64,000 bases of DNA from Escherichia coli (GTDB lineage Bacteria; Pseudomonadota; Gammaproteobacteria; Enterobacterales; Enterobacteriaceae), in the NCBI RefSeq assembly GCF_016026235.1, contig NZ_CP065613.1; one strand, written 5' to 3'. A program made the position numbers and the translations under genes. Shown piece by piece: positions 1,870 to 40,653 of the stretch (position 1 is its first letter; every line of letters starts with the position of its first letter). Below the pieces are notes generated by a model. The model saw only the letters and a list, made by a program, of their open reading frames with translations, searched no databases and was not told where the DNA came from.

Positions 1870-1896
1870 TTAAGTGAAGGCCGGATATGACGCATT

Positions 1897-2652
<756 letters not shown>

Positions 2653-2756
2653 ATCAGCATACTTGTCCTTAGCCTTCTGCAGTGACAGCTGGTAGTACAG
2701 CGTGCTTCTGGCCAGCCCTGCAGCCTTTAACAGGTCAGACTGGCAGTGTCCGCACT

Positions 2757-3287
2757 TCAGGCTCTGGATGACTTTCGTTTTTTCTCCAGCTCCTGGCGCT
2801 TTTTTTCCAGGAGATGCTCCTGCATGGCTTTCAGATATGCATTTTCTGCGCGAAGATAACGCAGCTCATTCTTCATCTCTTCCGGCGTCATGTTTCCCTC
2901 GTTTTCATGGGTATCATCAGAACGGGTCATGCTTTTCTCCTTCCTGCGCCTGATAAAGGCCTCATTACCAGATTTGCGGTAGCCTTTTATCCAGTTTTTA
3001 ACCATGTTGTGGCTGGGAATGTTAAACCGGGCGGCTACCCGGGGTAGAGACTCAGAATGCCCGAGAGCATAAAGAACCACGCAAAGTTTATCTTCAGGAG
3101 AATAGCTACGCTTGTGTCTGCAATCCAGTGCCTGAGGACCGTGAAGAAGAAAAAGATTAATCCAGTGTGAGAGGCTGGTGTGAGAAAGTTGAAAGAGTTT
3201 TGCCGTAGAAATGATGCCTGCATGACCGGCCAGGTAATGATTTACAGCGGCAAGTTTTACTTCAAATGAATGTTTCATAAACTGCAC
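2757..3287 (-). CDS. IS3-family transposase OrfA (HTH/leucine-zipper part)
   Basis: 176 aa ORF, basic and coiled-coil C-terminus typical of IS150-group OrfA; immediately upstream of the DDE ORF. Confidence 0.7.
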   Translation of the reverse strand: MQFMKHSFEVKLAAVNHYLAGHAGIISTAKLFQLSHTSLSHWINLFLLHGPQALDCRHKRSYSPEDKLCVVLYALGHSESLPRVAARFNIPSHNMVKNWIKGYRKSGNEAFIRRRKEKSMTRSDDTHENEGNMTPEEMKNELRYLRAENAYLKAMQEHLLEKKRQELEKKRKSSRA

Positions 3288-3356
3288 CTTCAGATGTCAG
3301 ATTATGTCCAACATTTGGGGTGCAGTTCATTAAGCGTCGCATCCGGCGAAAGTCAA

Positions 3357-3617
3357 TCAGGACTCGCTCACCACCACCGTACCGATTTCCGGGTGGCTAA
3401 AGCTGGTAATTTTATCCAGACGTAGCTCACGGGTTTCGCCAGCGGCCTCGACGACCAGATACTCCACATTTTTGCGGGAGACTAAATCGCTGGCTTTTGC
3501 CTGCAATTTTTCGCCATCTTTCAGCTCAAGTGTCAGCATTAAATGATGCTGGCAGGCGAGCTCAAGATTATCGTAATCATCACAATTGATTGGTTGATAC
3601 GTATCATTCATTGACAT
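3357..3617 (-). CDS. rof: Rho-binding antiterminator Rof
   Basis: 86 aa ORF recognised as Rof; conserved position next to yaeP. Confidence 0.8.
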
Positions 3618-3804
3618 AATCGCTCACCAGTAAGTTTGCCGCAGCGTATGCTGCTTTTTCCCTGACAGCCTCAGAAAGGGCGTCGTCGGCAGCCATTTCA
3701 TTCAGCACTTTCAAAACGCAGCCCAGCGCGTCCGGAACGTATCCTAAGTCTCCGCTGGCGATTTCCGCGTACCGCTTGCGTATTAACTCACAATATTTTT
3801 CCAC
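3604..3804 (-). CDS. yaeP: small protein YaeP
   Basis: ORF 3604..3822 overlapping rof start; likely internal start giving ~66 aa. Confidence 0.6.
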
Positions 3805-3969
3805 ATGCCCTCCTGTCAGCACTCTGACTTAACCGTGGATGCAAGTCTAAGCCTACGAAGATAAACTCTGTTTCGCAAGGTGACTATACCACACTCATTT
3901 CTGCAATATCAGCGCCGCAACTGCACGTATTCCGTTACAATGGCCTCCTGATTCGAAAGGAGTTTTCTT

Positions 3970-4515
3970 ATGGCGCTTAAAGCGACAATTTATAAAGCGA
4001 CGGTTAATGTGGCCGATCTCGACCGCAACCAGTTTCTCGATGCCTCTCTGACGCTGGCGCGCCACCCTTCAGAAACCTAGGAGCGTATGATGCTGCGCTT
4101 GCTGGCGTGGCTGAAATATGCTGATGAACGTCTGCAATTTACCCGTGGTTTGTGTGCCGATGATGAGCCGGAAGCGTGGCTGCGTAACGATCACCTGGGC
4201 ATTGATTTGTGGATTGAGCTGGGGCTGCCGGATGAGCGGCGGATTAAGAAAGCCTGCACCCAGGCCGCAGAAGTGGCGCTGTTTACCTATAATAGTCGGG
4301 CGGCGCAAATCTGGTGGCAGCAAAATCAGAGCAAATGTGTGCAGTTTGCCAATCTTTCCGTCTGGTATCTGGACGATGAACAACTGGCGAAAGTAAGCGC
4401 CTTTGCCGATCGTACCATGACGCTGCAGGCAACGATTCAGGATGGCGTGATCTGGTTATCGGATGATAAGAATAATCTGGAAGTGAACTTAACCGCCTGG
4501 CAACAACCTTCATGA
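3970..4515 (+). pseudogene. yaeQ: yaeQ interrupted by in-frame TAG at 4078..4080 (downstream ORF 4087..4515 retains residues ~40-181)
   Basis: ATG at 3970 encodes [36 protein letters not shown] then TAG in frame; reading continues as [10 protein letters not shown]... in the same frame. Confidence 0.55.
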
Positions 4516-4934
4516 TTGTGATTTCCCGACATGTTGCTATTCCCGATGGTGAGCTTGAGATCACCGCCATTCGTGCGCAGGGCGCGGGCGGGCAGCATGT
4601 TAATAAGACCTCAACGGCTATTCATCTGCGTTTTGACATTCGGGCGTCCAGCCTGCCAGAGTATTACAAAGAGCGTCTGCTCGCCGCCAGCCATCATTTG
4701 ATCAGCAGTGATGGCGTGATTGTCATTAAGGCACAGGAATACCGCAGTCAGGAACTGAACCGCGAAGCCGCTCTGGCCCGGCTGGTGGCTGTGATTAAAG
4801 AATTAACAACAGAACAAAAAGCCCGACGACCCACGCGGCCCACCCGTGCATCGAAAGAGCGCAGGCTGGCATCGAAAGCACAAAAATCAAGCGTGAAGGC
4901 GATGCGCGGCAAAGTGCGCAGCGGTCGGGAATAA
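4512..4934 (+). CDS. arfB: ribosome-rescue peptidyl-tRNA hydrolase ArfB (YaeJ)
   Basis: 140 aa with GGQ motif ([12 protein letters not shown]) and basic C-terminal tail. Confidence 0.85.
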
Positions 4935-4947
4935 AAAGAAGGAATGG

Positions 4948-5658
4948 ATGGTGAAAAAAGCGATAGTGACAGCGATGGCTGTAATCAGCCTCTTTACTCT
5001 GATGGGTTGTAATAATCGGGCCGAAGTCGATACGCTTTCTCCGGCGCAGGCAGCCGAACTGAAACCGATGCCGCAAAGTTGGCGCGGCGTGCTGCCGTGT
5101 GCCGATTGCGAAGGAATCGAAACCTCTCTGTTCCTCGAAAAAGACGGAACATGGGTGATGAATGAGCGTTATCTCGGTGCTCGTGAAGAACCTTCCTCCT
5201 TCGCTTCCTACGGTACATGGGCGCGAACCGCTGACAAGCTGGTATTAACCGACAGCAAAGGTGAAAAGTCATATTATCGGGCGAAAGGCGATGCGCTGGA
5301 GATGCTCGATCGTGAAGGCAATCCGATTGAATCGCAGTTCAACTATACGCTGGAACCGGCACAATCCAGTTTACCCATGACGCCGATGACCCTGCGGGGC
5401 ATGTATTTTTATATGGCTGATGCGGCGACCTTCACTGATTGCGTGACCGGAAAACGTTTCATGGTAGCGAATAACGCAGAGCTGGAGCGTGGCTACCTGG
5501 CTGCGCGTGGTCACAGTGAAAAACCGGTGTTACTGTCAGTAGAAGGTCACTTTACGCTTGAGGCTAATCCGGATACCGGTGCGCCAACCAAAGTATTAGC
5601 GCCCGATACGGCGGGTAAATTTTACCCGAATAAGGATTGCAGTAGTTTGGGGCTGTAA
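4948..5658 (+). CDS. nlpE: outer-membrane lipoprotein NlpE (CutF), Cpx envelope-stress sensor
   Basis: 236 aa with signal peptide and lipobox (LMGC), CXXC motif; synteny. Confidence 0.85.
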   Translation: MVKKAIVTAMAVISLFTLMGCNNRAEVDTLSPAQAAELKPMPQSWRGVLPCADCEGIETSLFLEKDGTWVMNERYLGAREEPSSFASYGTWARTADKLVLTDSKGEKSYYRAKGDALEMLDREGNPIESQFNYTLEPAQSSLPMTPMTLRGMYFYMADAATFTDCVTGKRFMVANNAELERGYLAARGHSEKPVLLSVEGHFTLEANPDTGAPTKVLAPDTAGKFYPNKDCSSLGL

Positions 5659-5689
5659 CCCGTCTTGAGACAGAAACAAACGCAAAACA

Positions 5690-5880
<191 letters not shown>

Positions 5881-5907
5881 GACCCGCCTTGATATAAATC
5901 CCTGGCT

Positions 5908-6735
5908 TCAGGTGCCCAACATACTGTAACTGCGTTTCTGCTTAAACGCAGAGACATCACCAATACGCATATGCATCAGATCGGCAGGGCTAATCCATCC
6001 CGATTGCGCCAGCGTAAGCGGATGCCCGGCTTTGGCAAATGCATCAGTGACAAATTCCGAACAAAACCACGACTTTTTGTCTCCTTCGCCCACACTGCTT
6101 AACTGCGCTTTCGCCAGGCCGCTGACGCACTGTTGGCGAAAATCCTCGGAGAACGGATTCAGTGAGCACATCTGGCGAGTCACCATAAAGGGAATAAATT
6201 CGACAATGCCGCGATAGTTATAACCGCTATCTTTGATTTTATTGGCAAACGCGGTGATATCTGTGGCTTGTTGCGGGGTAAGATCCGGGACTCGTAAGAC
6301 GAAAAGCTTATCACTATGCTTCATCGCTTTTTTAAGGGAAACGATCTGGACGCCAGCGCCTGTCGCTTCTGCAACGTTATTATCACCCAGATAGATTGCA
6401 ACGTGACTCACAGAGGAAGTGCTGAAGACGCGGATTCCAAATGAGGTTACCCCAAGGCTTGAGGAGAACAGCAAATCGCCGGGTTTGAGATCAGGTACCG
6501 TTATTTCTTTTATTGATTGTTCGGTGAAAGAGCTTTGATGCTGGAATTTGACAGCCCATGTTTTTGCCTCGGCATCTACTGCTGTGGCTGATGGGTCTGG
6601 CTGGCTGATATCAACGGTACAAGCCGAAAGTAAAAGAAAGCTGGGGAGAAACAGGCGGCAGTACGCCTTTGGTTTATCCATTTTATACAATCCATGTAAA
6701 AAAAGGGCCCTGAAATTCAGGACCCTTTCTGGCAT
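5908..6735 (-). CDS. yaeF: putative lipoprotein YaeF (NlpC/P60-related)
   Basis: 275 aa ORF with signal peptide and lipobox-like LSAC; synteny between nlpE and proS. Confidence 0.7.
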   Translation of the reverse strand: MPERVLNFRALFLHGLYKMDKPKAYCRLFLPSFLLLSACTVDISQPDPSATAVDAEAKTWAVKFQHQSSFTEQSIKEITVPDLKPGDLLFSSSLGVTSFGIRVFSTSSVSHVAIYLGDNNVAEATGAGVQIVSLKKAMKHSDKLFVLRVPDLTPQQATDITAFANKIKDSGYNYRGIVEFIPFMVTRQMCSLNPFSEDFRQQCVSGLAKAQLSSVGEGDKKSWFCSEFVTDAFAKAGHPLTLAQSGWISPADLMHMRIGDVSAFKQKRSYSMLGT

Positions 6736-8453
6736 CAGCCTTTAATCTGTTTCACCAGATATTCGACGATGTCACCAGTCTTAATTAACTGTTTCTCGCC
6801 GTTGCGACGATATTTATATTCGATATCGTCGTTGTCGAGGTTACGGTCGCCCAGCACAATAGTGTGCGGAATACCGATCAGTTCCATATCAGCAAACATC
6901 ACGCCCGGACGCTCTTTGCGGTCATCCAGCAGCACTTCGATACCTTGTGCACGCAGTTCGCTGTACAGTTTCTCAGCAAGCTCTTGTACGCGGAAGGATT
7001 TGTGCATGTTCATCGGCAGAATCGCCACCTGGAACGGCGCGATAGCGTCAGGCCATACGATGCCGCGTTCGTCGTAGTTCTGCTCAATCGCCGCAGCTAC
7101 CACACGCGTTACCCCGATACCGTAGCAACCCATCGTCAGGATTTGGTTACGGCCATCTTCACCCTGTACGGAGGCTTTCAGTGCTTCGGAGTACTTGGTA
7201 CCCAGCTGGAAGATGTGACCAACTTCGATACCACGTTTGATCAGCAGCGTACCCTGGCCATCCGGGCTTGGATCGCCAGCCACCACGTTACGGATATCTG
7301 CAACTTCCGGGGTAGCGACATCGCGATCCCAGTTGATGCCGAAGTAGTGTTTACCATCGATGTTAGCACCAGCAGCGAAATCACTCATCGCCGCAACGGT
7401 ACGGTCAATCACCACCGGAATCGGCATGTTTACCGGACCCAGTGAACCCGGACCGGCTTTAACCACAGCACGAATTTCTTCTTCGGTCGCGAAAGTCAGC
7501 GGGCTTGCAACCTGCGGCAGTTTTTCTGCTTTAACTTCGTTCAGCTCGTGATCACCGCGCACCAGCAGCGCAACCAGCGGGAAGCTGCTGCCTTCAACCG
7601 CTTTAACCAGCAGAGTCTTAACCGTTTTCTCAATCGGCAGATTGAACTGTTCAACCAGTTCCGCGATGGTTTTCGCGTTCGGCGTATCAACCAGCGTCAT
7701 TTCCTGGGTAGCAGCAGCGCGCGGTTCTTTCGGCGCGATAGCTTCTGCCAGTTCAATGTTCGCTGCATAGTCAGAGGTGTCGGAGAAGACCACATCGTCT
7801 TCACCGCTCTGCGCCAGCACCTGGAATTCGTGAGAGGCGCTGCCGCCGATAGAACCGGTGTCGGCTTGTACGGCGCGGAAATCCAGCCCCATGCGGCTGA
7901 AGATTTTGCTGTAGGCCGCATACATTGCATCGTAGGTTTCCTGCAGGGATTCCTGAGAAGTATGGAAAGAGTAAGCATCTTTCATCAGGAATTCGCGGGA
8001 ACGCATGACGCCGAAACGCGGACGCACTTCGTCGCGGAACTTGGTCTGGATCTGATAGAAGTTCAGCGGCAGCTGTTTGTAAGAGCTAAGCTCGTTACGA
8101 ATCAGGTCAGTGATAACTTCTTCATGAGTTGGGCCGAGTACGAACGGACGCTCGCCACGGTCAACAAAACGCAGCAGTTCCGGACCGTACTGTTCCCAAC
8201 GACCACTCTCTTGCCACAAATCGGCTGGCTGAACCACCGGCATCGACACCTCGATCGCACCGGCGTTGTTCATCTCTTCACGCACGATGTTTTCGACTTT
8301 TTTCAGAACGCGCACGCCGGTCGGCAGCCAGGTATATAACCCGGAGGCCAGCTTGCGGATCATCCCGGCGCGCAGCATCAGCTGATGGCTGATCACCTCG
8401 GCGTCGGCAGGTGTCTCCTTGAGAGTGGAGAGCAGGTATTGGCTAGTACGCAT
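6735..8453 (-). CDS. proS: prolyl-tRNA synthetase
   Basis: ORF 6735..8507; probable start at [20 protein letters not shown] (572 aa); class II aaRS. Confidence 0.9.
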
Positions 8454-8564
8454 GTTGTTACGGTTCCAGTTGGAAGGTAGAACAGGCTCAAGGCGAGCCT
8501 GGGACAAAAAAAAGTGATTTAGTTTACCAGTGCAAAAGAAATGTCAAAAGAGAAGGGCGTGAAT

Positions 8565-9272
8565 TTAACGCGGTTCCAGCGCAAAGACTTCAAAACCTGC
8601 GTCGGTGACGCGCCAGCGAACGTTAAAATCATGTAGCCAGACGGCATAGGTTTTGCCCGTTTCCTCACCTTTACGATAGGCCGGGCGCGGGTCCTGCGCC
8701 AGTACTTCGCGGATAAACAGCGTTAACTGCGGATAACGCTTCTCCAGCGTCAAAAGCTGCTTTTCGACCTCTGCGGTAAAACTCACCGCCATCTCTGCCG
8801 CTGGCGCACTTTGCGCATAGCTGGCACTGGCATCGGGAAGCGATTCGGCAAAGGGGAGATACGGTTTGATATCCACCACCGGCGTACCATCGACCAGATC
8901 CAGACTGCCGAGCTTCAGAATCACGCTGTCTTTATGGCAAACAACCTCTTTCAGCTCTACCAGCGACATACCAATTGGGTTAGGGCGAAAAGTGGAGCGC
9001 GTAGCGAAAACACCCATTCTGGCATTACCGCCAAGACGAGGCGGACGCACAGTCGGACGCCAGCCGCCTTCCATCGTTTGATGAAAGACGAAAAGGATCC
9101 ATAAATGGCTGAATGCTTCCAGGCCGCGAACGGCGTCGGCCTGGTTGTAGGGAGCAATGAGATGCAGTTCGCCGTTGGCGCTTTTTACCAGACCTGGCTG
9201 GCGCGGAACGGCGAACTTTTCTTTATAGGGCGAGCGAATAACGCCTATTTGCTCGAACTGGAAACTGCTCAT
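8565..9272 (-). CDS. tsaA: tRNA (adenine37-N6)-methyltransferase TsaA (YaeB)
   Basis: 235 aa ORF recognised as YaeB/TsaA; synteny. Confidence 0.8.
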   Translation of the reverse strand: MSSFQFEQIGVIRSPYKEKFAVPRQPGLVKSANGELHLIAPYNQADAVRGLEAFSHLWILFVFHQTMEGGWRPTVRPPRLGGNARMGVFATRSTFRPNPIGMSLVELKEVVCHKDSVILKLGSLDLVDGTPVVDIKPYLPFAESLPDASASYAQSAPAAEMAVSFTAEVEKQLLTLEKRYPQLTLFIREVLAQDPRPAYRKGEETGKTYAVWLHDFNVRWRVTDAGFEVFALEPR

Positions 9273-9673
9273 TTCGCCGTAATGTTAAGCGCAGAACCGA
9301 TACATACAGCCTGACGATAGCAGCCTGGCGTACCGCTGGTGACTTCGCAGCTATGCAGTAATACCGCATTGGCTTTCATTTTCGAGGCGTTGATTTGCAT
9401 CCGCTTACGTGCGGTTGGAATGCTCGGCGGAGAGTCCTGATTAGAGGCCTGGCAAGAGTCGCCACTGACTTCGCCGAGATCGCGGAACGGTTTGCCGACT
9501 AATTCTTCTGCATTGGTATAAATTCGGACCGGCGTGGCGCGCGGCGCTTTCGGTTTTGCAGGCTCCGCTTTCGGCTGGGGTGCAGTGCTTTGAACGGGTT
9601 CGACAGGGGATCTGCTTAACATGGAACAGCCGCTTAGCATGAGTGCTACTAAACAGATCGGTAAAGCACGCAT
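9269..9673 (-). CDS. rcsF: outer-membrane lipoprotein RcsF
   Basis: 134 aa, lipobox LSGC, proline-rich linker, conserved cysteines. Confidence 0.85.
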   Translation of the reverse strand: MRALPICLVALMLSGCSMLSRSPVEPVQSTAPQPKAEPAKPKAPRATPVRIYTNAEELVGKPFRDLGEVSGDSCQASNQDSPPSIPTARKRMQINASKMKANAVLLHSCEVTSGTPGCYRQAVCIGSALNITAK

Positions 9674-9790
9674 AGTATTTCCTCAATGTATGATCAAAAC
9701 GTCAATATTGAATCAGGAGCTTGTAAAAATGACAAGACGGGCAAGCGCCCGTCCTGAATGATATTACAAATTGTGGAAACAGCCTAAAAA

Positions 9791-30052: not shown

Positions 30053-33000
30053 TTAATACAATGTATCCGGTAAACGGAACTGGCTGAACAGACCGCCGGT
30101 GAACGGGTTATCTTCGGTATCCACATGCACCCGGTAAACCATCGCGCCGCCGTCCACGTTAAAGCGCACGTTAAAGGTGTCACTGGTTACGTTGGTCAAC
30201 TGGCCCGCGCCGAACAGGCGGAACTGCGCCCACGGTCCACTGAACGCGATACTGCGCGGTGCTCCGCCGCTGGTGCCAATCAGCGTCAGCTTGCTTTCAT
30301 TGCCTTCACGCATGTTGTTCGGCCAGACCAGATGGGCGGTATAGTTGCGTCCCTGGCTGTAGTCCACTAACTGGCCGTCCAGGTTAAGTACGCTGCGCCG
30401 CTTATTGCCGGAAAGCGATACGGTTTCCACGGCAAACTGTGCGCCCAGTCCGTTCTGCTGGCTAAAGAAGATGTCGCGGATTTTCTGTGCGGTATCCAGT
30501 TGTTGCCGGATATCTTCACGGATCAGCACTCTGCCGTCGTCGCCAAAGGTCAGATCGTTTTCCAGGAACAGTCGCAGGTTGTCCCTGTAGAACGAGTCCA
30601 GAATGCCATCCGGTTTAAAGAAGCGCTCAAACGCATCCAGTGAGGCATCCTGTGGGGCGCGTGGATTAAACGGATAGTTACCGGCAAGCTGTTCGTTGAA
30701 GGGTTTCACCACATTGTCGCGCCAGTCCACTTCCATGTAATGAACGGCTTCCACCATCACTACATGCCAGGCCTGATCCGCCAGCTTGCCCACCCAGCGG
30801 TTAAGAGGCGCAGGCAGGGTTTTTGCCATCTGACGGGTGGCGAAGATTGGATCGCTGCTGTTTTGATCCAGCCGTAGCTGTACTGCTTTCAGCGCCGATT
30901 TCCCAGACACTGGCGAGTTCTGAATCGCCAGCAGGTAACGGTGCAGCTCGGTCAGTTGCTGGTACACGGCCTGTAGCGTACTCGCCTTGTCCTTTTGCTC
31001 CTCCAGTGCGCTATTTTCCGGCGCGAGCTCATGTCCCAGCCGGGATAACAGGCGGTAATCCATCTCATTTATCGCCGCTTCCCTCGCCTTATCATCCAGT
31101 TTGCCGGAGAGCGTCAGCGCGTGTGTATTATCGCGCAGCGCCGTCAGCGCACGCTGGAATGGCTGATCGCCGCTGATAATCTGCTCCAGCGCGTCGGTCA
31201 GCACCGGCATGGCCTCATAGTCACGGACGTTGAGATTATCCATTCCGGCACGCCATGTAGCGGTATAGTCACTGAGGTACTGTTCAGTGATATGGCGCTG
31301 GATCTCTTCACGGTCGGCCTCGCTGTAGGCGACGCTTTGCGTCAGGTTCAGCACCCACGAATCCAGCGCGGTCAACTCAACGAGACCGTCGTGTTGTTTG
31401 ATAAAATAGCTTTGCAGGCCATAGCGGGTGAGAAACTGCGGGATCACCAGTTTTTCATCATTACCGGCGACGAACACGTTGTCGAAGGTGGGACCAACCT
31501 GGTCGCGCAAATTCAAATCGGCGGGCAACACGCTTAATGCTTTGGTGCGCAGGGTCTGGTAGACACGCTGGTATATCGGCAGTTTGCTCAGTTCATGTTG
31601 CGCATTAATGACCGCTTTATCATAGGGTGTCCAGCGGCTGATGGCGTCGCTGTCGCCGCTCTGGCGCTGCGCGTGCCAGTCGGTGTGTTCCAGCGCATAG
31701 TCCAGATGTGCCATCAGTTGCGCCTGAATATCACGCTGGCCGTGAAATTCATTGCTCCAGCGCCGCGCCATGTACTGTTTTACCGCCTCGTTGTTGCGCC
31801 CACTTTTGTCTTCCATCATGCGCACTACGCGCAGCACGGCGAGTTTTTCTTCACTCTCAGGCGGGGCATTGTTCAGATCCCGGATCAGGCCGTTCATTAA
31901 CGAGGGGAGATAACGCTGCTCAAGAAGCTGAATGTAGGTTTGTTCCACATATGACCCTACGCGGACGCCCTGGTACAATCCCATATCCGCCAGAAAACCG
32001 TGATCGCGGTAATCGCCGTAGGCGAGGGTGGCATCGCGTACCGGGTTGAGTAACGGCAGTTGCAGATTGCCGAATTCATCCTTTCCCTGCGGTGGTGGTA
32101 CGTCCATAAAGGCTTTAGCCTGTGCCAGTACGTTAACGCCGGACTGCCAGTTCTGGTTGTAATAATGGTGCCAGCTTCCGACCAGCAATGCCGCCAGTGC
32201 CGCGCCACAGGCGGAAAAGGCGGTCAGCCTGCGCCGGGAGCTGTTCAGCCAGACGCTGTTTTCACCTGCAAGGTTTGGCTCGGCCAGCAGGACTTCCGGG
32301 AAGAGGCGGCGGGTGAAATACGGCGTTGTTTCCACCAGGGGCCAGGTCGCCAGCGAGCTGTTGCCCAGCCCGTACTGGCGGGCGGCGGACTGCGTGAAAA
32401 TATCATCCACCTGGCCGCGCTGTAGCGAGGATGTGAGCCAGACGCCGCGCAGCATCACATCCATATTCTCGCCGTCCAGCAATGCGGCGAGCAGTGAAGT
32501 GACGATTTCTCCCGTTCCCTGCATCTGACGGGAGAAACTGAACACGGCGCTGCGTAGCGCAGCACCGGTCTGCACGAGCATCAGGTCTGACAGCGCCAGG
32601 TTCATCTGTTGCCCCCACGTCTGCCAGAACGCACTCAGCTCACTGCGCCAGTCATCGTTTTCATGGGCGCGGCGGGTAAATGTGACGCCGAGGATCGCAT
32701 CGCGGCCTTTTTTATCCAGCGAATGGAAAAGTGCGGCAAAGCCAGTCAGCAGATCCAGCCGGGTCAGCACCACATAAACGGGCAACCGGCAGTGCAGGCA
32801 CTGGCGGATCTCCTGGAGTTGCTGACGCAGATTTTGTACCAGTGCTTCGCGGCGGGGTTTATCCGCCGTCAGCAGATCGGGAAGATCGAGCGTCAGGATC
32901 AGACCGTTGAGCGGCTGGCGTGCGCGTGTTTGCATTAGCCAGCCCAGCCAGTGTTCGCGCAGGCGGCGGTGGAGCAGATCATCCCCGCCGGGGGAGGTCA

Positions 33001-33580
33001 GTACACCGTCAACATCGAAAATCACCGCCTGGTTGCCCACTCGTGGTGTGATCAGCGGATGGTATTCCACACCCCGGATGCTTTCCGGCGTGTAAATAAT
33101 GTCAGATGGAAAGCTCTCACGCAACAGCGTGCTTTTACCGCTACCGGCAGGTCCAATGACCATATACCACGGCAGTTGCCACAGATAGCGGTGGTTATCC
33201 AGATGGCGGCGCAGGCGCAGCAGCCAGTGATCCAGATATTGCTGCTGGCGGTGGAGTTGCACGGTCAGCGGATCTTTTTCTTCCTCCCGCTGCTGTTTCT
33301 GCTGTTTTTCCAGCTTTTGCAGACGCTTCATTACCCGCCAGGTGAGCCAGATCAGAGCGGTAAGTCCCCAGACGGCAGTCGCAAGCCAGCGGTTTGCCAG
33401 GGGAGCCAGCCAGTGCTGCTCATAGAGCGTCCATTTCGGACCCTGCCACCAGATCCATACCAGCAGAAAAAACCATGCCAGCATCAGTAGCCAGGTGGCG
33501 GAAACTTTAAACCGCGGCATCGCTGGCCTGAGCGCAGATTTCAACGTGCTGAACAGTCGGGATGTGGGAAATTTGAACAC
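30053..33580 (-). CDS. tssM: T6SS membrane-complex protein TssM (IcmF/VasK)
   Basis: 1175 aa; N-terminal TM helices followed by Walker A GPAGSGKST; size and position. Confidence 0.9.
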   Translation of the reverse strand: MFKFPTSRLFSTLKSALRPAMPRFKVSATWLLMLAWFFLLVWIWWQGPKWTLYEQHWLAPLANRWLATAVWGLTALIWLTWRVMKRLQKLEKQQKQQREEEKDPLTVQLHRQQQYLDHWLLRLRRHLDNHRYLWQLPWYMVIGPAGSGKSTLLRESFPSDIIYTPESIRGVEYHPLITPRVGNQAVIFDVDGVLTSPGGDDLLHRRLREHWLGWLMQTRARQPLNGLILTLDLPDLLTADKPRREALVQNLRQQLQEIRQCLHCRLPVYVVLTRLDLLTGFAALFHSLDKKGRDAILGVTFTRRAHENDDWRSELSAFWQTWGQQMNLALSDLMLVQTGAALRSAVFSFSRQMQGTGEIVTSLLAALLDGENMDVMLRGVWLTSSLQRGQVDDIFTQSAARQYGLGNSSLATWPLVETTPYFTRRLFPEVLLAEPNLAGENSVWLNSSRRRLTAFSACGAALAALLVGSWHHYYNQNWQSGVNVLAQAKAFMDVPPPQGKDEFGNLQLPLLNPVRDATLAYGDYRDHGFLADMGLYQGVRVGSYVEQTYIQLLEQRYLPSLMNGLIRDLNNAPPESEEKLAVLRVVRMMEDKSGRNNEAVKQYMARRWSNEFHGQRDIQAQLMAHLDYALEHTDWHAQRQSGDSDAISRWTPYDKAVINAQHELSKLPIYQRVYQTLRTKALSVLPADLNLRDQVGPTFDNVFVAGNDEKLVIPQFLTRYGLQSYFIKQHDGLVELTALDSWVLNLTQSVAYSEADREEIQRHITEQYLSDYTATWRAGMDNLNVRDYEAMPVLTDALEQIISGDQPFQRALTALRDNTHALTLSGKLDDKAREAAINEMDYRLLSRLGHELAPENSALEEQKDKASTLQAVYQQLTELHRYLLAIQNSPVSGKSALKAVQLRLDQNSSDPIFATRQMAKTLPAPLNRWVGKLADQAWHVVMVEAVHYMEVDWRDNVVKPFNEQLAGNYPFNPRAPQDASLDAFERFFKPDGILDSFYRDNLRLFLENDLTFGDDGRVLIREDIRQQLDTAQKIRDIFFSQQNGLGAQFAVETVSLSGNKRRSVLNLDGQLVDYSQGRNYTAHLVWPNNMREGNESKLTLIGTSGGAPRSIAFSGPWAQFRLFGAGQLTNVTSDTFNVRFNVDGGAMVYRVHVDTEDNPFTGGLFSQFRLPDTLY

Positions 33581-35046: not shown

Positions 35047-35790
35047 TTATTCTCCCGCCCAGTGGCAGGCGTCGCGTAGCGGCGCAATAACCCGTGCCAG
35101 CCCGTCAATGTTAAAGGTCAGCTTTCCGGCGGCGTTGTCTGCGCCGGTATCCACCGTCAGCGTTTTTGCGCCGAACAGTTGCTTAATTTCATCAATCCCG
35201 GATAACCCCCTGCTGGACTCCAGCAGGGTGCCGTTCTCGCGCACAAACCAGTGGCTGCGCAGTGCCCGTGTGTCGGCATTCAGGGTGACGGCGATATCGT
35301 GGACATCCAGAGGGTGCATCAGCGCCACCTGCATCCGGGTAATATTGTCCACGCAACTGAACATCAGCACCGGGCGTGGCGGAACATGGCCGATAGCCGG
35401 GGTGGTTATCACCACCGTCGGGCGTTCCCCCGGCACCTGCGTCACCAGCAGCTCCGTGGTGTTGCCCTGGCGGCGTTTTTCCTGCTCTGTGGCGCGGGTC
35501 CAGGCTTCGCCCACAAAGCTGGCTTTGACCAGTGCGGCGTTGCCGAAGCCGGGCTGTTCCGGCGCAAGAATGCGGTCATAACAGTCAAGCCGCTCCAGCG
35601 CCGCAGACTCCCGCCGACAGGACTGCATGGCCTGTAACGTAGCTGTCGCATCCGGCGGGGTCGTGGTGGCGACGGCGACCGCCACACCGGCCATTGACGA
35701 TGTTTCTGCGGGCGCGGCACTGGCCGGTAAGCCCGCCATCAGGCCCGCGATAAACCATCCTGTCTGCCGGAAAACGCGCAACCTGCTCAT
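35047..35790 (-). CDS. T6SS-associated VasI-like secreted protein
   Basis: 247 aa with N-terminal signal peptide (FIAGLMAGLPASAAPA); between clpV and tssA as vasI is in the V. cholerae cluster. Confidence 0.5.
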   Translation of the reverse strand: MSRLRVFRQTGWFIAGLMAGLPASAAPAETSSMAGVAVAVATTTPPDATATLQAMQSCRRESAALERLDCYDRILAPEQPGFGNAALVKASFVGEAWTRATEQEKRRQGNTTELLVTQVPGERPTVVITTPAIGHVPPRPVLMFSCVDNITRMQVALMHPLDVHDIAVTLNADTRALRSHWFVRENGTLLESSRGLSGIDEIKQLFGAKTLTVDTGADNAAGKLTFNIDGLARVIAPLRDACHWAGE

Positions 35791-38519
35791 AAAACCATTT
35801 CATCCTCTGTGACGGACTCGTCGTCCTGAGCATCTTCCACGTCTGCCGTGAATGCACCGTCTGCCGCCGACAGGCGGATGCGGGCAATCGCCGTGTTAGC
35901 CGCCATTTTCTGCAACAGCAGCAGCGAGAGCGGCGGCAGCATGTCGCCGTCGATGACCGATTCGAGCATCCTCGCGCCGTTTTCCGCGCGGGTGACGCGG
36001 CTCATGATTTCGTCCGTCACTTCCGGCTCAATAACCACCTCCGCGCCAAAGCGGCTGCGCAGCACGTTATCCAGGCGGGCCAGTTTCCCGGCGATGATGG
36101 TGGCGAGCGTCTCTTTCGACAGCGGCAGGTAAGGCACCACCTCCATTCGCGCAAGCAGGGCAGGTTTAAAGAAGTCAGCCAGCACCGGATAGAGGGCTTC
36201 CTGCATGGTCTCCGGGTCATCCGCGTGTTCGACAATCATCTGGTAACCGAGGTTGGAGGTGAGGAAGAAGACGATATTCTTACAGTCAATCAGGCGGCCT
36301 TCGCCGTCTGCCATCTCGCCCTTGTCGAACGCCTGGTAGAACAGGTTGAGCACATCCGGGTGCGCTTTTTCCACTTCATCGAGCAGTACCACCGAGTAGG
36401 GTTTCTGGCGGATGGCTTCAGTCAGTACGCCGCCTTCGCCATAGCCGACATAGCCCGGAGGGGAGCCAATCAGCCGCGAGACGGTGTGCTTCTCCTGGAA
36501 CTCGGACATATTGATGGTGGTGAGGTACTGGCGACCGCCGTAGAGCAGCTCTGCCAGTTGCAGGACGGTTTCGGTTTTACCCACGCCGCTGGGGCCAGCC
36601 AGCAGGAACGCGCCGAGCGGGCGTCCCGGACGGCGCAGGTCGGCGCGTGCGGTCAGCAGGTGTTTATGCAGGCTGGCAATTGCCAGGTCCTGGCCTTTGA
36701 TGGTGTCACCAAGCCACTTCGGCAGGTCGGTGATGACCGACATTTCATTCTGCGACAGGCGGTTAAGCGGTACGCCGGTCCATTCGGCAATCACCGCCGC
36801 AATCTGTTTTTTATCGACGTGCGGGGAAACCAGCAACCGGTCGTTATGCAGGGCGTCCAGTTCGGCAGTGAGTTGTACTAGCTGCTGCACCGGGGAAACT
36901 GTTTCAGCGGTCTCTTCCGGCTGTGTACTGCCCGCATCATCAGCCGGTGCGGTACCGGTATTATCCTGTTCTGACTCTGGCGGCGTATCCACTACGGCAT
37001 CTGTGTCCTCTGTCACACCCAGCAATAGCTGGCGCAGCGCGATAATTTCCCGTACCAGCGTCTGCTGCTGGTGCCAGGCCGCTTCCAGTTCATCCAGCGC
37101 CGTCAGCGTTTCATCGTACTGCACCAGCACCTCAGTCATCCGTGAAGTGTCGGTACGCAGCCCGATGCGAAGCTCGCGCTCAAGCTGGCGAATTTCCGCC
37201 TCCTGCTGGTGGCTCAGGGTGGTCAGCGCCGAGATTTGCTTCGGTGGCGATGACAGGTTGATTGCCACACGTGCGCAGGCCGTATCCAGCACATCAATGG
37301 CTTTGTCTGGCAACTGACGCCCGGAGAGATAACGCTCACTTAATGTCGCAGCGGCCTGCAAGGCGTCATCATCAATCAGCACACCGTGAGACTGTTCATA
37401 GACCGAAGAGAGGCCGCGCAGAATAATGGTGGCTTCGGCAGCACTGGGTTCACTGACCTTCACCAACTGGAAGCGACGCGACAGGGCGGCGTCTTTCTCG
37501 AAGTATTTTTTGTACTCGCTCCAGGTGGTGGCGGCGATGGTTTTCAGCTCGCCACGCGCCAGTGCCGGTTTGAGCAGGTTGGAGATATCCAGCCCGCCCT
37601 GCTGGTTGCCCGCGCCAATCAGGGTATGCGCTTCGTCGATAAACAGAATGACCGGCACCGGAGAGGAAATGACCTCCGCCATCAGCCCCTTGAAACGTTT
37701 TTCAAACTCACCTTTCACCGATGCTCCGGCCTGCAATGCGCCCAGGTCAAGAGTCATGATATCGGTGTTTTTCAGCTTATCCGGCACCTGCCCTGCCACG
37801 ATGCGCAGCGCCAGCCCTTCAATCAGCGCGCTTTTGCCCACGCCGGCTTCGCCCACCACCACCGGATTGTTTTTACGGCGGCGGCAGAGAATGTCGATCA
37901 TCAGGTCGATTTCGTGGTCGCGGCACAGTACCGGGTCAAGTTTTCCGTTACGGGCGTCTGCGGTCATGTTTTTGGCGTAGCGGGCCAGCAGGGTGTCGCT
38001 GGTTTCCGTTGCGCGGGGCGTTTGCCCGCCAGCCAGATCCACGGATTCGGCGGATTCTTTTGTCCATGCGGCGAAATCCTGCTGTAACTGGTCGCGGTTT
38101 ATGGCCGTCAGCAGACGGGCAGCAGCGGGTGGAATATAGCGCAGCGGTGAATGCAACAGAGTAAGCAGCAGGACGCCGCTGCGCAGTTCGCTGTGCTGCA
38201 TCTGGGCCGAGGCCAGCAGCCATGACTCCTTGAGCCATTCGACCAGCATCGGGGAGAAGCTGGGATAGCCATCGGCGGAACGTCCGCCGGGATAACTCTC
38301 CACGGTCAGCGCCTGGCGTAAATCCTCCGCACTGATGCCTGTGCGTTCGGCAATCACCCTTACGTCGTTGCGCGGGATTGCCAGCATCTGTAACAGCACA
38401 TGGGCAACGGTGATCTCACTGGCCTGCTGGCTCATACACTCCGAGGCAGCCATTTCCAGCGCCTGTTTTGCAAAGGGGTTAAGCCGCTTTACCAGCGTGG
38501 CTAAATCAATCTGGATCAT
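35787..38519 (-). CDS. clpV: T6SS AAA+ ATPase ClpV (TssH)
   Basis: 910 aa, two AAA+ modules with Walker A GEAGVGKS and GPSGVGKT. Confidence 0.9.
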   Translation of the reverse strand: MIQIDLATLVKRLNPFAKQALEMAASECMSQQASEITVAHVLLQMLAIPRNDVRVIAERTGISAEDLRQALTVESYPGGRSADGYPSFSPMLVEWLKESWLLASAQMQHSELRSGVLLLTLLHSPLRYIPPAAARLLTAINRDQLQQDFAAWTKESAESVDLAGGQTPRATETSDTLLARYAKNMTADARNGKLDPVLCRDHEIDLMIDILCRRRKNNPVVVGEAGVGKSALIEGLALRIVAGQVPDKLKNTDIMTLDLGALQAGASVKGEFEKRFKGLMAEVISSPVPVILFIDEAHTLIGAGNQQGGLDISNLLKPALARGELKTIAATTWSEYKKYFEKDAALSRRFQLVKVSEPSAAEATIILRGLSSVYEQSHGVLIDDDALQAAATLSERYLSGRQLPDKAIDVLDTACARVAINLSSPPKQISALTTLSHQQEAEIRQLERELRIGLRTDTSRMTEVLVQYDETLTALDELEAAWHQQQTLVREIIALRQLLLGVTEDTDAVVDTPPESEQDNTGTAPADDAGSTQPEETAETVSPVQQLVQLTAELDALHNDRLLVSPHVDKKQIAAVIAEWTGVPLNRLSQNEMSVITDLPKWLGDTIKGQDLAIASLHKHLLTARADLRRPGRPLGAFLLAGPSGVGKTETVLQLAELLYGGRQYLTTINMSEFQEKHTVSRLIGSPPGYVGYGEGGVLTEAIRQKPYSVVLLDEVEKAHPDVLNLFYQAFDKGEMADGEGRLIDCKNIVFFLTSNLGYQMIVEHADDPETMQEALYPVLADFFKPALLARMEVVPYLPLSKETLATIIAGKLARLDNVLRSRFGAEVVIEPEVTDEIMSRVTRAENGARMLESVIDGDMLPPLSLLLLQKMAANTAIARIRLSAADGAFTADVEDAQDDESVTEDEMVL

Positions 38520-39306: not shown

Positions 39307-40653
39307 TTATCCCCTTATCGCCCAGAGCTGAAGGTTCAGATCGGGGAAGGTGCCGGAGATATGCAGCGCCAGCGCGCCCGCTTTTATCACGTCCTGCCAG
39401 GCTGGGGTGCCTTTTTCCAGTTCGAAGTAAACATAACCTTCATGCCAGGGCAACTGACGCGGCGCAGCGGTAAGCGTGTGCAGCGGAATACCCGGCACCT
39501 GCACGCTGACCACGCTGCGGATTTTGTCGGTAGCGGCCACTTTCGACTGCTGGATGAACTGGCGTTGTACCTGGTCGTAGGGCATCCTGGCGCGCACTGC
39601 CAGTACCAGCTTGCAGGACTGCAACAGTGTGGGATCGTTGATGGTGGCGATCCAGGTCCCCTCTGAAAAGAACAGCGGCAGATTCTGCGCACGCGGCACC
39701 AGTACGGTATTGAGCGCGCGCCGCAGTTCCGGGATCACGGTTCTGGTGAAGGTCGCGGTAAGATCCCTGTGATTATATGGCTCCACGGTGCAGGGCAGGC
39801 GATTACCTTCGGTAAAGGTCATCAGTTCTCCCAGCAGCCCCACCAGATTCCGGTAGAAGGCTTCCGGATGCAGCGTGTGCAGTTGGGAACGATGCGTGAA
39901 CTGCATTTGATGGCGGTTAAGCATCTGCAACATCATAAATTCGGCTACATCGGCGATCCCGCTCTGTTCAGGCGAACCAATGCGCCCGGCCAGGTCAGCG
40001 GCGCGGGTGGCAAGTAGTCCCTGCACCTCGCCGGAGAATGCCCCGAGCAACCCGCTGACACGGACGGCCTGAATGGTGGGAATAAAGGTGTTGTCCAGCA
40101 CCAGCGCGCCGGTGGCATTTTTATTGAGGATACGGCACAGGGGGAGAGTCACCATCGCGCTGAGATCATCTGCGCCGCTGACTATCCTGGGGATCAACTG
40201 TCCCAGACCGACTGGCTGTTCGTCGCCTTCGTCAGTGTGAAAATCACGGACGCGGGTATGGGTGAGGCGGTAACGCTCCGTACCCTGACCGGCGCTGTGC
40301 AACCCCTGGATTTCATTGATCACGTCGCTTATCACCGGCAGCGCCAGATAAATACTGTGGCTCTCTTTCGATGAAAGGGTTCCCGGCTGGAAAGGTTCCG
40401 GCAGCAGATCCTGGTCGGGAATACTGAATACGGTGCCGTCAGGCATGCAGCCCGCCGCACGGTCAATCATAATTTTGCCCTGAGCAAGCAGTTCGGTATT
40501 GATGGAGAGTTCCGTAAAGCCCCAGAAAAAATCACCCAGTGCATCCAGACGACGGGTCAGCAGGTACTCGCAGTGACGCTGCTGTTGCTGAAAATGCTGC
40601 GGCAGGGCAAACAGCCCTTCCTGCCAGATCACCTTGTTTTTCATTGTTGCCAT
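39307..40653 (-). CDS. tssK: T6SS baseplate protein TssK
   Basis: 448 aa; size and conserved position between tssJ and tssL. Confidence 0.8.
   Translation of the reverse strand: MATMKNKVIWQEGLFALPQHFQQQQRHCEYLLTRRLDALGDFFWGFTELSINTELLAQGKIMIDRAAGCMPDGTVFSIPDQDLLPEPFQPGTLSSKESHSIYLALPVISDVINEIQGLHSAGQGTERYRLTHTRVRDFHTDEGDEQPVGLGQLIPRIVSGADDLSAMVTLPLCRILNKNATGALVLDNTFIPTIQAVRVSGLLGAFSGEVQGLLATRAADLAGRIGSPEQSGIADVAEFMMLQMLNRHQMQFTHRSQLHTLHPEAFYRNLVGLLGELMTFTEGNRLPCTVEPYNHRDLTATFTRTVIPELRRALNTVLVPRAQNLPLFFSEGTWIATINDPTLLQSCKLVLAVRARMPYDQVQRQFIQQSKVAATDKIRSVVSVQVPGIPLHTLTAAPRQLPWHEGYVYFELEKGTPAWQDVIKAGALALHISGTFPDLNLQLWAIRG

Follow-up and report, generated by a model that had tools for sequence, protein, structure and literature searches.

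A Q37 amber codon at a Dcm site in yaeQ of Escherichia coli: rarity, recurrence and probable loss of function

The yaeQ locus of the Escherichia coli DNA analysed here, a stretch of 64,000 nucleotides that we call the window, raises the question of whether a stop codon lying in frame near the 5' end of the gene is a genuine nonsense mutation and, if it is, how it arose and what it leaves of the gene product. The preliminary description of this DNA had read the codon as an amber that replaces a glutamine of yaeQ. Our analysis supports that reading and extends it by a mechanism of origin and a likely consequence, namely a Dcm hotspot, independent recurrence of the same change and the absence of a conserved segment from the product of a possible restart. 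We consider it highly probable that yaeQ in the window is a recent loss-of-function Q37amber allele that arose by a C-to-T change at the inner cytosine of a Dcm site.

A single-base amber change in yaeQ

The interruption is visible both in the letters and in the list of open reading frames. From ATG 3970 the frame runs through 36 sense codons into TAG 4078-4080 and continues in the same frame beyond it up to TGA 4513-4515, so that the list holds two ORFs in this frame, one of 36 aa (3970-4080) and one of 142 aa (4087-4515). The features discussed below are collected in Table 1. That the interrupted gene is yaeQ, as had been proposed, is borne out by a full-length match to the Pfam YaeQ family and by 99.8% identity to the intact yaeQ of complete E. 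coli genomes. A translation with Gln at codon 37 gives 181 aa and scores 239.3 bits against PF07152 (gathering cut-off 25), with residues 1-173 placed on profile positions 1-172 of 173, and it is identical to the sequence of PDB 3C0U. No uninterrupted frame in the window spans the whole PF07152 domain; the longest intact ORF is 4087-4515, which from ATG 4087 covers profile positions 40-172 only, with 164 bits.

The stop would be no interruption at all if yaeQ normally began at the downstream ATG, an escape that the preliminary description had left standing and that fails on two counts: reference annotations take the upstream ATG, at 3970 in the window, as the start and give 181 aa, and the 3C0U crystal structure spans residues 2-181, Gln37 included. 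A 661-base query (window 3900-4560) matched 5,424 of the 5,426 complete E. coli genomes, with 99.8% identity in the best case. Across these 661 bases the sole difference from the nearest complete genome, NZ_CP027355, is T in the window against C at 4078, which confirms that a single C-to-T change turned the Gln37 codon CAG into TAG, and the comparison with a K-12 derivative adds to 4078 one synonymous difference at 4065. Position 4078 of the window is a single-base nonsense change and not a chance pattern of reading frames.

Table 1. Coordinates of the yaeQ amber allele and adjoining features in the window
Feature	Position	Strand	Remarks
Native Shine-Dalgarno sequence AAAGGAG	3956..3962	+	7 nt 5' of ATG 3970; -8.2 kcal/mol with the 16S 3' end
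yaeQ frame, interrupted at codon 37	3970..4515	+	181 codons plus stop; pseudogene or nonsense allele
36-aa stub ORF (beta-hairpin and HPSE loop of YaeQ), ending at the amber	3970..4080	+	
Former Dcm site, ancestral CCAGG now CTAGG	4077..4081	.	mutated base is the inner cytosine, the target of Dcm
Amber TAG replacing CAG (Gln37)	4078..4080	+	C-to-T at 4078
Internal Shine-Dalgarno-like AGGAG, overlapping the amber	4079..4083	+	3 nt before ATG 4087, 6 nt before ATG 4090
Possible reinitiation ORF, without residues 1-39/40	4087..4515	+	142 aa from ATG 4087, 141 aa from ATG 4090
Second Dcm site, heptamer ACCCAGG; Gln98 CAG 4261-4263 in the same frame	4260..4264	.	intact in the window; internal control
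arfB, alternative ribosome-rescue factor	4512..4934	+	ATG overlaps the yaeQ stop (ATGA 4512-4515)

The surroundings of yaeQ look like those of an ordinary E. coli chromosome. The neighbours rof, yaeP, arfB, nlpE, yaeF and proS are as in E. coli K-12, the synteny rof-yaeP-yaeQ-arfB-nlpE is kept, and most neighbouring genes are intact in the window, as are the scanned ORFs of the T6SS cluster. Near yaeQ, yaeF is also frameshifted, a lesion that the window has in common with FDAARGOS_943, its closest complete relative. A comparison with K-12 had put forward yafE as a further pseudogene; we withdrew this candidate, as FDAARGOS_943 annotates an intact 771-bp gene there.

Rarity, recurrence and origin at a Dcm site

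The allele is rare. A 57-mer centred on the TAG had no exact match among the complete E. coli genomes, and TAG-bearing 33-mers in two flanking-haplotype versions, designed so that the CAG allele is unable to seed a match, hit 0 of 5,426 of them; the control 33-mer with CAG is present exactly in 4,456. In a large protein collection the exact 36-aa stub occurs on 193 contigs, the longest of 4.56 Mb. The relative FDAARGOS_943 carries CAG in an annotated, intact yaeQ and shares with the window not only the yaeF lesion but also the IS1397 junction between tilS and rof, with about 12 differing sites in 18 kb outside the rRNA operon. Because this closest complete relative retains CAG, the Q37amber is recent in the window lineage. 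No secondary decay of the window yaeQ is visible, its coding sequence being otherwise that of NZ_CP027355, and this is to be expected of a recent mutation. Programmed stop-codon read-through is excluded: the TAG is derived and rare, with the TAG and CAG probe counts and the CAG of the closest relative as given above.

Rarity is accompanied by recurrence. The same TAG was found in 10 of 10 inspected stub loci, whose yaeQ sequences lie up to 18 of 546 positions away from that of the window, and the backgrounds that carry it comprise at least eight yaeQ haplotypes (the window with L010; L003; L004; L005 with L011; L006; L007 with L012; L008; L009). One of these, L008, is the finished chromosome of Shigella flexneri 89-141. 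Another, L010 (GCA_900449985.1; UGFA01000002.1), matches the window without a single difference over 6,781 bases, the IS insertion beside rof included, and its TAG may not be independent of that in the window, since the two are possibly the same record. Among themselves the TAG haplotypes differ at 29-199 positions in 2,269 bp, where the distances near 175-200 all involve L003 and reflect an ungapped comparison inflated by an indel. For three divergent TAG backgrounds the nearest CAG genome was sought and about 10.9 kb compared. Between L007 and E. coli strain 104 a single base out of 10,901 differs, the codon-37 C/T, and L005 and L006 each differ at two bases in about 10.9 kb from SK1144 and 13P484A, respectively, both of which have CAG; in each pair one of the two bases is again the codon-37 C/T. 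Furthermore, the flanking polymorphic sites, one 13 bases 5' and the other 8 bases 3' of the TAG, are found beside it in each of the four possible combinations. On these sequence comparisons, independent origins of the TAG are the only economical reading, and the allele is sporadic across lineages rather than lineage-defining.

The same material bears on the concern that the T was introduced at 4078, within a methylated Dcm motif, by faulty base calling or consensus building in a strain that truly carries CAG. This CCAGG is error-prone elsewhere, where its conversion to CCAG or CCGGG produces 39-aa stubs (L013, L018, L031-L034) in assemblies that also have the neighbours tilS and nlpE split by frameshifts, and the best-matching carrier, L010, may be the window's own record. 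The errors at the motif, however, are indels and A-to-G changes and not a clean C-to-T, the neighbours in the window are intact or bear lesions common to a close relative, and the identical TAG appears in many multi-contig draft and run-level assemblies of diverse haplotypes as well as in the finished S. flexneri 89-141 (sequencing platforms inferred). We regard an artefact in the window as very unlikely. More generally, true mutations and sequencing errors (the latter as indels, and as A-to-G in error-rich assemblies) both concentrate at this CCAGG motif, and stubs ending there therefore need read-level checks before pseudogenes are called.

The context of the mutated base suggests how a genuine amber would have arisen. 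All comparators have the ancestral sequence ACC CAG GAG, in which CCAGG occupies gene positions 108-112 with the mutation at 109, and three marks of a Dcm hotspot are found together here: a CCWGG ancestor hit at its inner C, a C-to-T transition and independent recurrence. CAG-to-TAG at CCAGG is also the classic amber hotspot of lacI. According to PMC9520237, which cites Cherry 2018 (see also PMC13250602, PMC10710837), natural E. coli and Salmonella show a C-to-T rate about 8-fold higher at the CCWGG inner C, and repair of the T:G mismatch at CCWGG by Vsr is described in PMC9520237 and PMC13250602. In the sequence of events that we propose, Dcm would have methylated the inner C of CCAGG 4077-4081 to 5-methylcytosine, the 5-methylcytosine at 4078 would have deaminated straight to thymine, and the T:G mismatch would have evaded very-short-patch repair by Vsr and become fixed as CTAGG. 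We infer that the 4078 site is methylated in this strain and that deamination was the actual cause of the change; dcm and vsr lie outside the window.

Two observations on this site stand apart. The C-to-T at 4078 abolishes CCAGG and creates a CTAG, the sole one in the 3-6 kb part of the window; the tetramer is depleted in the window as a whole (22 observed against about 45 expected from trinucleotides). In L027 and L028 it is codon 38 that has become a stop, GAG to TAG, by a G-to-T change at the last G of the same Dcm site, which deamination does not explain.

A control for the hotspot reading is provided by the other nonsense sites of the gene. Among the four CCWGG sites of yaeQ, deamination of the inner C yields a stop at Q37, Q98 and W177. 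Exact-stub look-ups are comparable across Q37, Q98 and other early sites because the protein is invariant to residue 105 in the haplotypes at hand, and their results are given in Table 2.

Table 2. Exact-stub look-ups for yaeQ nonsense sites and arbitrary cuts; the entries number contigs or index blocks rather than independent events and include noise from partial genes at contig ends
Stub	Class of site	Contigs	Index blocks with longest contig at least 20 kb
Q37	Dcm site	193	51
Q98	Dcm site	148	79
E38 (37-aa stub)	non-Dcm, G-to-T	85	8
W47	non-Dcm	49	
Q56	non-Dcm	25	
W70	non-Dcm, two mutational routes	66	9
W81	non-Dcm	45	
Q113	non-Dcm	27	
Arbitrary 35-aa cut	n/a	0	
Arbitrary 50-aa cut	n/a	0	
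Arbitrary 90-aa cut	n/a	52	15

Because raw stub counts are noisy, blocks with long contigs and direct inspection of the DNA were added. The 52 contigs at the arbitrary 90-aa cut are in part contig-end partial genes and in part a real R91 nonsense allele (CGA to TGA) in CGA haplotypes. The Q98 stop proved to be a real C292T in 9 of 9 places inspected, on about 8 haplotypes, and the W70 stop was real in 6 of 10, on 6 haplotypes. Recurrence by itself thus does not prove a hotspot, given that the non-Dcm W70 allele is likewise found on 6 haplotypes. In these counts the two Dcm ambers, Q37 and Q98, appear several-fold commoner per mutational route than the non-Dcm nonsense alleles, an excess that is approximate in size because the counts are contigs or blocks and not independent events. 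Overall, yaeQ nonsense alleles are rare segregating variants. Polymorphism in the region is silent on the point: among window 3328-9700 and 13 related loci (6.4 kb, 14 loci), C/T or G/A polymorphism affects 3 of 40 inner positions of CCWGG against 256 of 3,197 other C/G positions, which is no enrichment in an underpowered sample, and the test is uninformative rather than contradictory because the variation is old divergence between phylogroups and the sample is small.

The recurrence could also stem from selection, with inactivation of yaeQ being positively favoured, a reading that is compatible with a Dcm origin of the mutation itself. Consistent with it are the many nonsense alleles (at Q37, E38, W47, Q56, W70, W81, R91, Q98 and Q113), the presence of one carrier in Shigella, a lineage of gene decay, and the frameshift in nearby yaeF. 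Against it, all of these alleles are rare, the Q37 amber being absent from every one of the complete E. coli genomes probed, intact yaeQ is near-universal, and the apparent excess is confined to the two Dcm sites, as mutation bias and not selection would predict. We judge adaptive loss to be highly unlikely, and mutation bias at the Dcm sites remains our preferred reading of the recurrence.

Consequences for YaeQ and arfB

In the window strain, translation from ATG 3970 would stop after 36 residues. A ribosome terminating there would do so on AGGAG, 7-10 nt from two in-frame AUGs, and some reinitiation would be likely, yielding a fragment of 141 or 142 aa. The calculated pairing of AGGAG 4079-4083 with the 16S 3' end, -7.3 kcal/mol for ATG 4087 and -7.8 kcal/mol for ATG 4090, comes near that of the native site (-8.2), and gene callers working on other assemblies pick the second ATG and report 141 aa. 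Restart after early ambers is known in lacI. Reinitiation at ATG 4087 or 4090 after the amber is thus plausible on the local sequence.

What such a fragment would lack can be read from conservation and structure. We aligned 58 full-length YaeQ family members that are 32-49% identical to the E. coli protein; of the 14 columns that are invariant or nearly so, 7 fall in residues 1-39 (M1, A30, H32, P33, S34, E35 and R39). A structure model of YaeQ (pLDDT 96.5; TM 0.95-0.97 to 3C0U) puts both strands of a long beta-hairpin (6-16 and 21-31), together with the loop 32-36 that bears HPSE, ahead of the stop, and the amber at the first residue of helix 37-49. The fold is a variant of PD-(D/E)XK (PMC3424549; PMC9252766), and the same two sources conflict on a link of YaeQ to RfaH. 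Because the restart product would be without the conserved N-terminal beta-hairpin and the HPSE motif, YaeQ function is probably lost in the window strain; in the mechanism proposed here, a fragment that starts after beta-strands 1-2 and the HPSE loop and has only half of the most conserved residues would most probably be inactive.

The restart context invites the alternative that YaeQ survives in split or shortened form, with the 36-aa and 141-aa pieces together, or the 141-aa piece alone, retaining function. The strong Shine-Dalgarno-like AGGAG at the stop, with its two AUGs 7-10 nt downstream, and a coding sequence that has decayed no further and is otherwise that of NZ_CP027355 are both in keeping with this idea. 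However, the absence of decay is expected of a recent mutation, and the piece from M40 or M41 would have neither the two long beta-strands nor the HPSE loop and would miss 7 of the 14 columns that are most conserved. The Q98 amber, which has no comparable restart context, is moreover about as common as the Q37 amber, so that no special tolerance of the latter is needed. YaeQ proteins of other taxa that start at Met41 offer no precedent either, being contig-end artefacts: a natural short isoform from Met40/41 was considered on the strength of family representatives in other taxa that start there and was rejected, the inspected ones lying 25-34 bases from a contig end. A functional split or shortened YaeQ is accordingly very improbable. 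Less probable again, and to our minds exceedingly unlikely, is that the Q37 amber is tolerated better than a plain knockout because of its position, with termination on AGGAG and restart at AUG 4087/4090 yielding a 36-aa beta-hairpin/HPSE peptide and a 141-aa remainder that reassemble non-covalently into working YaeQ, the coupling to arfB being kept; if this were true, the allele would be a naturally occurring, recurrently generated split protein.

Full-length YaeQ could alternatively be made by read-through of the amber, through a suppressor (supE-type glnV or glnX with a CUA anticodon) or a near-cognate tRNA-Gln. The appeal of this reading is that the UAG derives from a Gln codon, CAG to TAG, and insertion of Gln would restore the exact wild-type protein, Gln being what supE inserts at UAG. 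Yet the tRNAs in the 64,000-nt window (Ile, Ala, Asp and Asp only) include no suppressor candidate, glnV and glnX lying elsewhere in the genome, and it is not possible that every one of the at least eight unrelated backgrounds of the allele is a suppressor strain. Natural isolates rarely carry suppressor alleles, and the basal level of UAG read-through is low. Functional YaeQ by read-through is extremely unlikely, the least probable of the readings weighed here, and loss of function remains the preferred one.

The amber may also matter for the next gene. Because the arfB ATG overlaps the yaeQ stop and its Shine-Dalgarno sequence is almost absent (-1.5 kcal/mol with the 16S 3' end), arfB is probably translationally coupled to yaeQ. 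An early stop in yaeQ could thus lower ArfB, and restart could mitigate the effect; in practice, restart would then let ribosomes go on reaching the arfB start, which overlaps yaeQ and is Shine-Dalgarno-less, and it may mainly serve to maintain this flow. Rho-dependent polarity on arfB was considered and is unsupported: the 431 nt 3' of the amber contain 31% G and 22% C, with no obvious C-rich, G-poor stretch for Rho loading, and strong polarity is not predicted from a G-rich stretch after the stop.

For the annotation of the window this means that yaeQ ought to be listed as a pseudogene or nonsense allele, and expression of arfB in the window strain is possibly affected through lost or altered translational coupling. 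The locus raises no new question on the function of YaeQ and confirms that the gene is dispensable in nature. Its interest lies in being a clean natural example of a textbook mechanism, in which a small dispensable gene holds two Dcm sites, identical in heptamer and in frame, that repeatedly generate amber alleles across E. coli and Shigella.

Comparison with known systems

The closest parallel is lacI, where amber hotspots at CCAGG were reportedly traced to deamination of 5-methylcytosine by Coulondre, Miller, Farabaugh and Gilbert in 1978. The yaeQ allele resembles these hotspots, and the natural Dcm hypermutation described in PMC9520237 (Cherry 2018), in the CCAGG motif, the frame C, CAG, G, the hit on the inner C, the change of CAG to TAG and the recurrence. 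It differs from the lacI hotspots in being a chromosomal allele found in nature, whereas the lacI mutations were selected mutants. The possible restart has its counterpart in lacI as well, in the restart fragments after early amber mutations that Platt, Weber, Ganem and Miller are said to have reported in 1972, some of which retain partial function. The two cases have in common an early nonsense codon and a Shine-Dalgarno-like sequence with in-frame AUGs within a few nucleotides; unlike those fragments, the yaeQ restart is a prediction only, and the segment that it would lose holds the most conserved motif of the family.

With respect to the YaeQ family itself (PF07152, COG4681; PD-(D/E)XK-variant; PDB 3C0U, 2G3W, 2OT9, 7TCB), the locus has 99.8% identity to E. 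coli yaeQ, the synteny yaeP-yaeQ-arfB-nlpE and a match to the whole profile, but its frame is broken at codon 37, which makes it a pseudogene or nonsense allele and not a functional member. It also recalls the point-mutation pseudogenes of Shigella and host-restricted E. coli, in that a dispensable gene bears one nonsense change, with an IS and a frameshifted gene nearby, and in that S. flexneri 89-141 carries the same allele. In contrast to decay of that type, the window lineage resembles ordinary E. coli, the neighbouring genes are mostly intact and the allele is sporadic. Together, these comparisons place the Q37amber of yaeQ as a new instance of a well-known type of event, one that is real, recent, and rare but recurrent.

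Nonsense alleles and probable artefacts at the yaeQ Dcm sites

Codon 37 is not the only site of nonsense change in yaeQ. At a second Dcm site of the gene, Gln98 is converted to TAG (C292T) outside the window in approximately eight different haplotypes (loci L035-L043), and the resulting 97-aa protein is on record in 148 contigs. A different amber, E38* (GAG to TAG), lies one codon 3' of codon 37 in L027 and L028, two different haplotypes. It is a G-to-T change at the last G of the codon-37 CCAGG (gene position 112, window 4081; position 1612 of both loci), and is unexplained by cytosine deamination.

Other apparent lesions at the same motif are of a different kind. In L013, L018 and L031-L034 the codon-37 CCAGG is altered to CCAG or CCGGG, which yields 39-aa stubs with sequences such as SETQSV and SETRGV on up to 127 contigs, and in these assemblies the adjacent tilS, nlpE and proS are also split by frameshifts. 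These alterations look like base-calling errors that recur systematically where a motif is Dcm-methylated, and the motif is therefore a hotspot not only of real mutation but also of artefacts. Contig ends inside yaeQ likewise recur at a few positions in many short metagenome or run-level contigs from unrelated samples (L029 and L030 at gene position 113; L050-L053; L056-L062), and probably result from strain mixtures at nearby polymorphic sites. Such contigs inflate the counts of "truncated" YaeQ in the protein collection.

The start of arfB

The stop codon of yaeQ overlaps the start of arfB (ATGA, window 4512-4515), and Shine-Dalgarno complementarity upstream of arfB (window 4492-4511) is nearly absent, at -1.5 kcal/mol compared to -8.2 for yaeQ and -5.7 for nlpE. 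Together, the overlap and the near-absent Shine-Dalgarno sequence suggest that translation of arfB relies on ribosomes that come through yaeQ.

Surrounding features of the window

Across the first 20.5 kb, approximately 25 of the 37 differences between the window and FDAARGOS_943, its closest complete E. coli relative, fall inside an rrnH-type rRNA operon, a clustering that fits heterogeneity among rRNA copies or gene conversion better than ordinary divergence. In yaeF (window 5858-6681, minus strand) a one-base frameshift close to the 3' end places the first stop after 257 codons instead of 274; PGAP also flags the gene as frameshifted in FDAARGOS_943 and in 13P484A, a genome with CAG at yaeQ codon 37.

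Comparison with K-12 gave the initial impression that yafE is disrupted, as the window carries approximately 196 more bases (21640-21837), joined at a 26-base repeat. This impression is countered by FDAARGOS_943, where the annotation at this locus is an intact gene of 771 bp for a class I SAM-dependent methyltransferase; the shorter K-12 allele may therefore be the derived one. Also not in K-12 is an island of approximately 34 kb (window 27300-61828) that adjoins the tRNA-Asp gene aspV (26826-26902) and comprises a type VI secretion cluster.

Features located in the window
Feature	Position	Remark
IS3-family element	1896-3327	1,432 bp, between tilS and rof
orfB of IS3-family element	1930-2652	minus strand
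orfA of IS3-family element	2757-3287	minus strand
Second yaeQ Dcm site	4260-4264	ACCCAGG, Gln98; unmutated in window
rrnH-type rRNA operon	13400-18600	
16S 3' end	14977-14989	rrnH-type operon
tRNA-Ile	15058-15134	rrnH-type operon
tRNA-Ala	15177-15252	rrnH-type operon
tRNA-Asp	18602-18678	rrnH-type operon
TssM	30053-33580	type VI secretion cluster
ClpV/TssH	35787-38519	type VI secretion cluster
TssK	39307-40653	type VI secretion cluster
TssC	45765-47249	type VI secretion cluster
Hcp	48477-48995	type VI secretion cluster
VgrG	49216-51615	type VI secretion cluster
IS4-family transposase	60025-61266	type VI secretion island

The junction of the insertion between tilS and rof is identical in FDAARGOS_943, and in E. 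coli IAI39 and GMF054 PGAP annotates the same insertion as IS1397. REP/BIME sequences are targets of IS1397, which could explain why distant strains carry the element at one same site.
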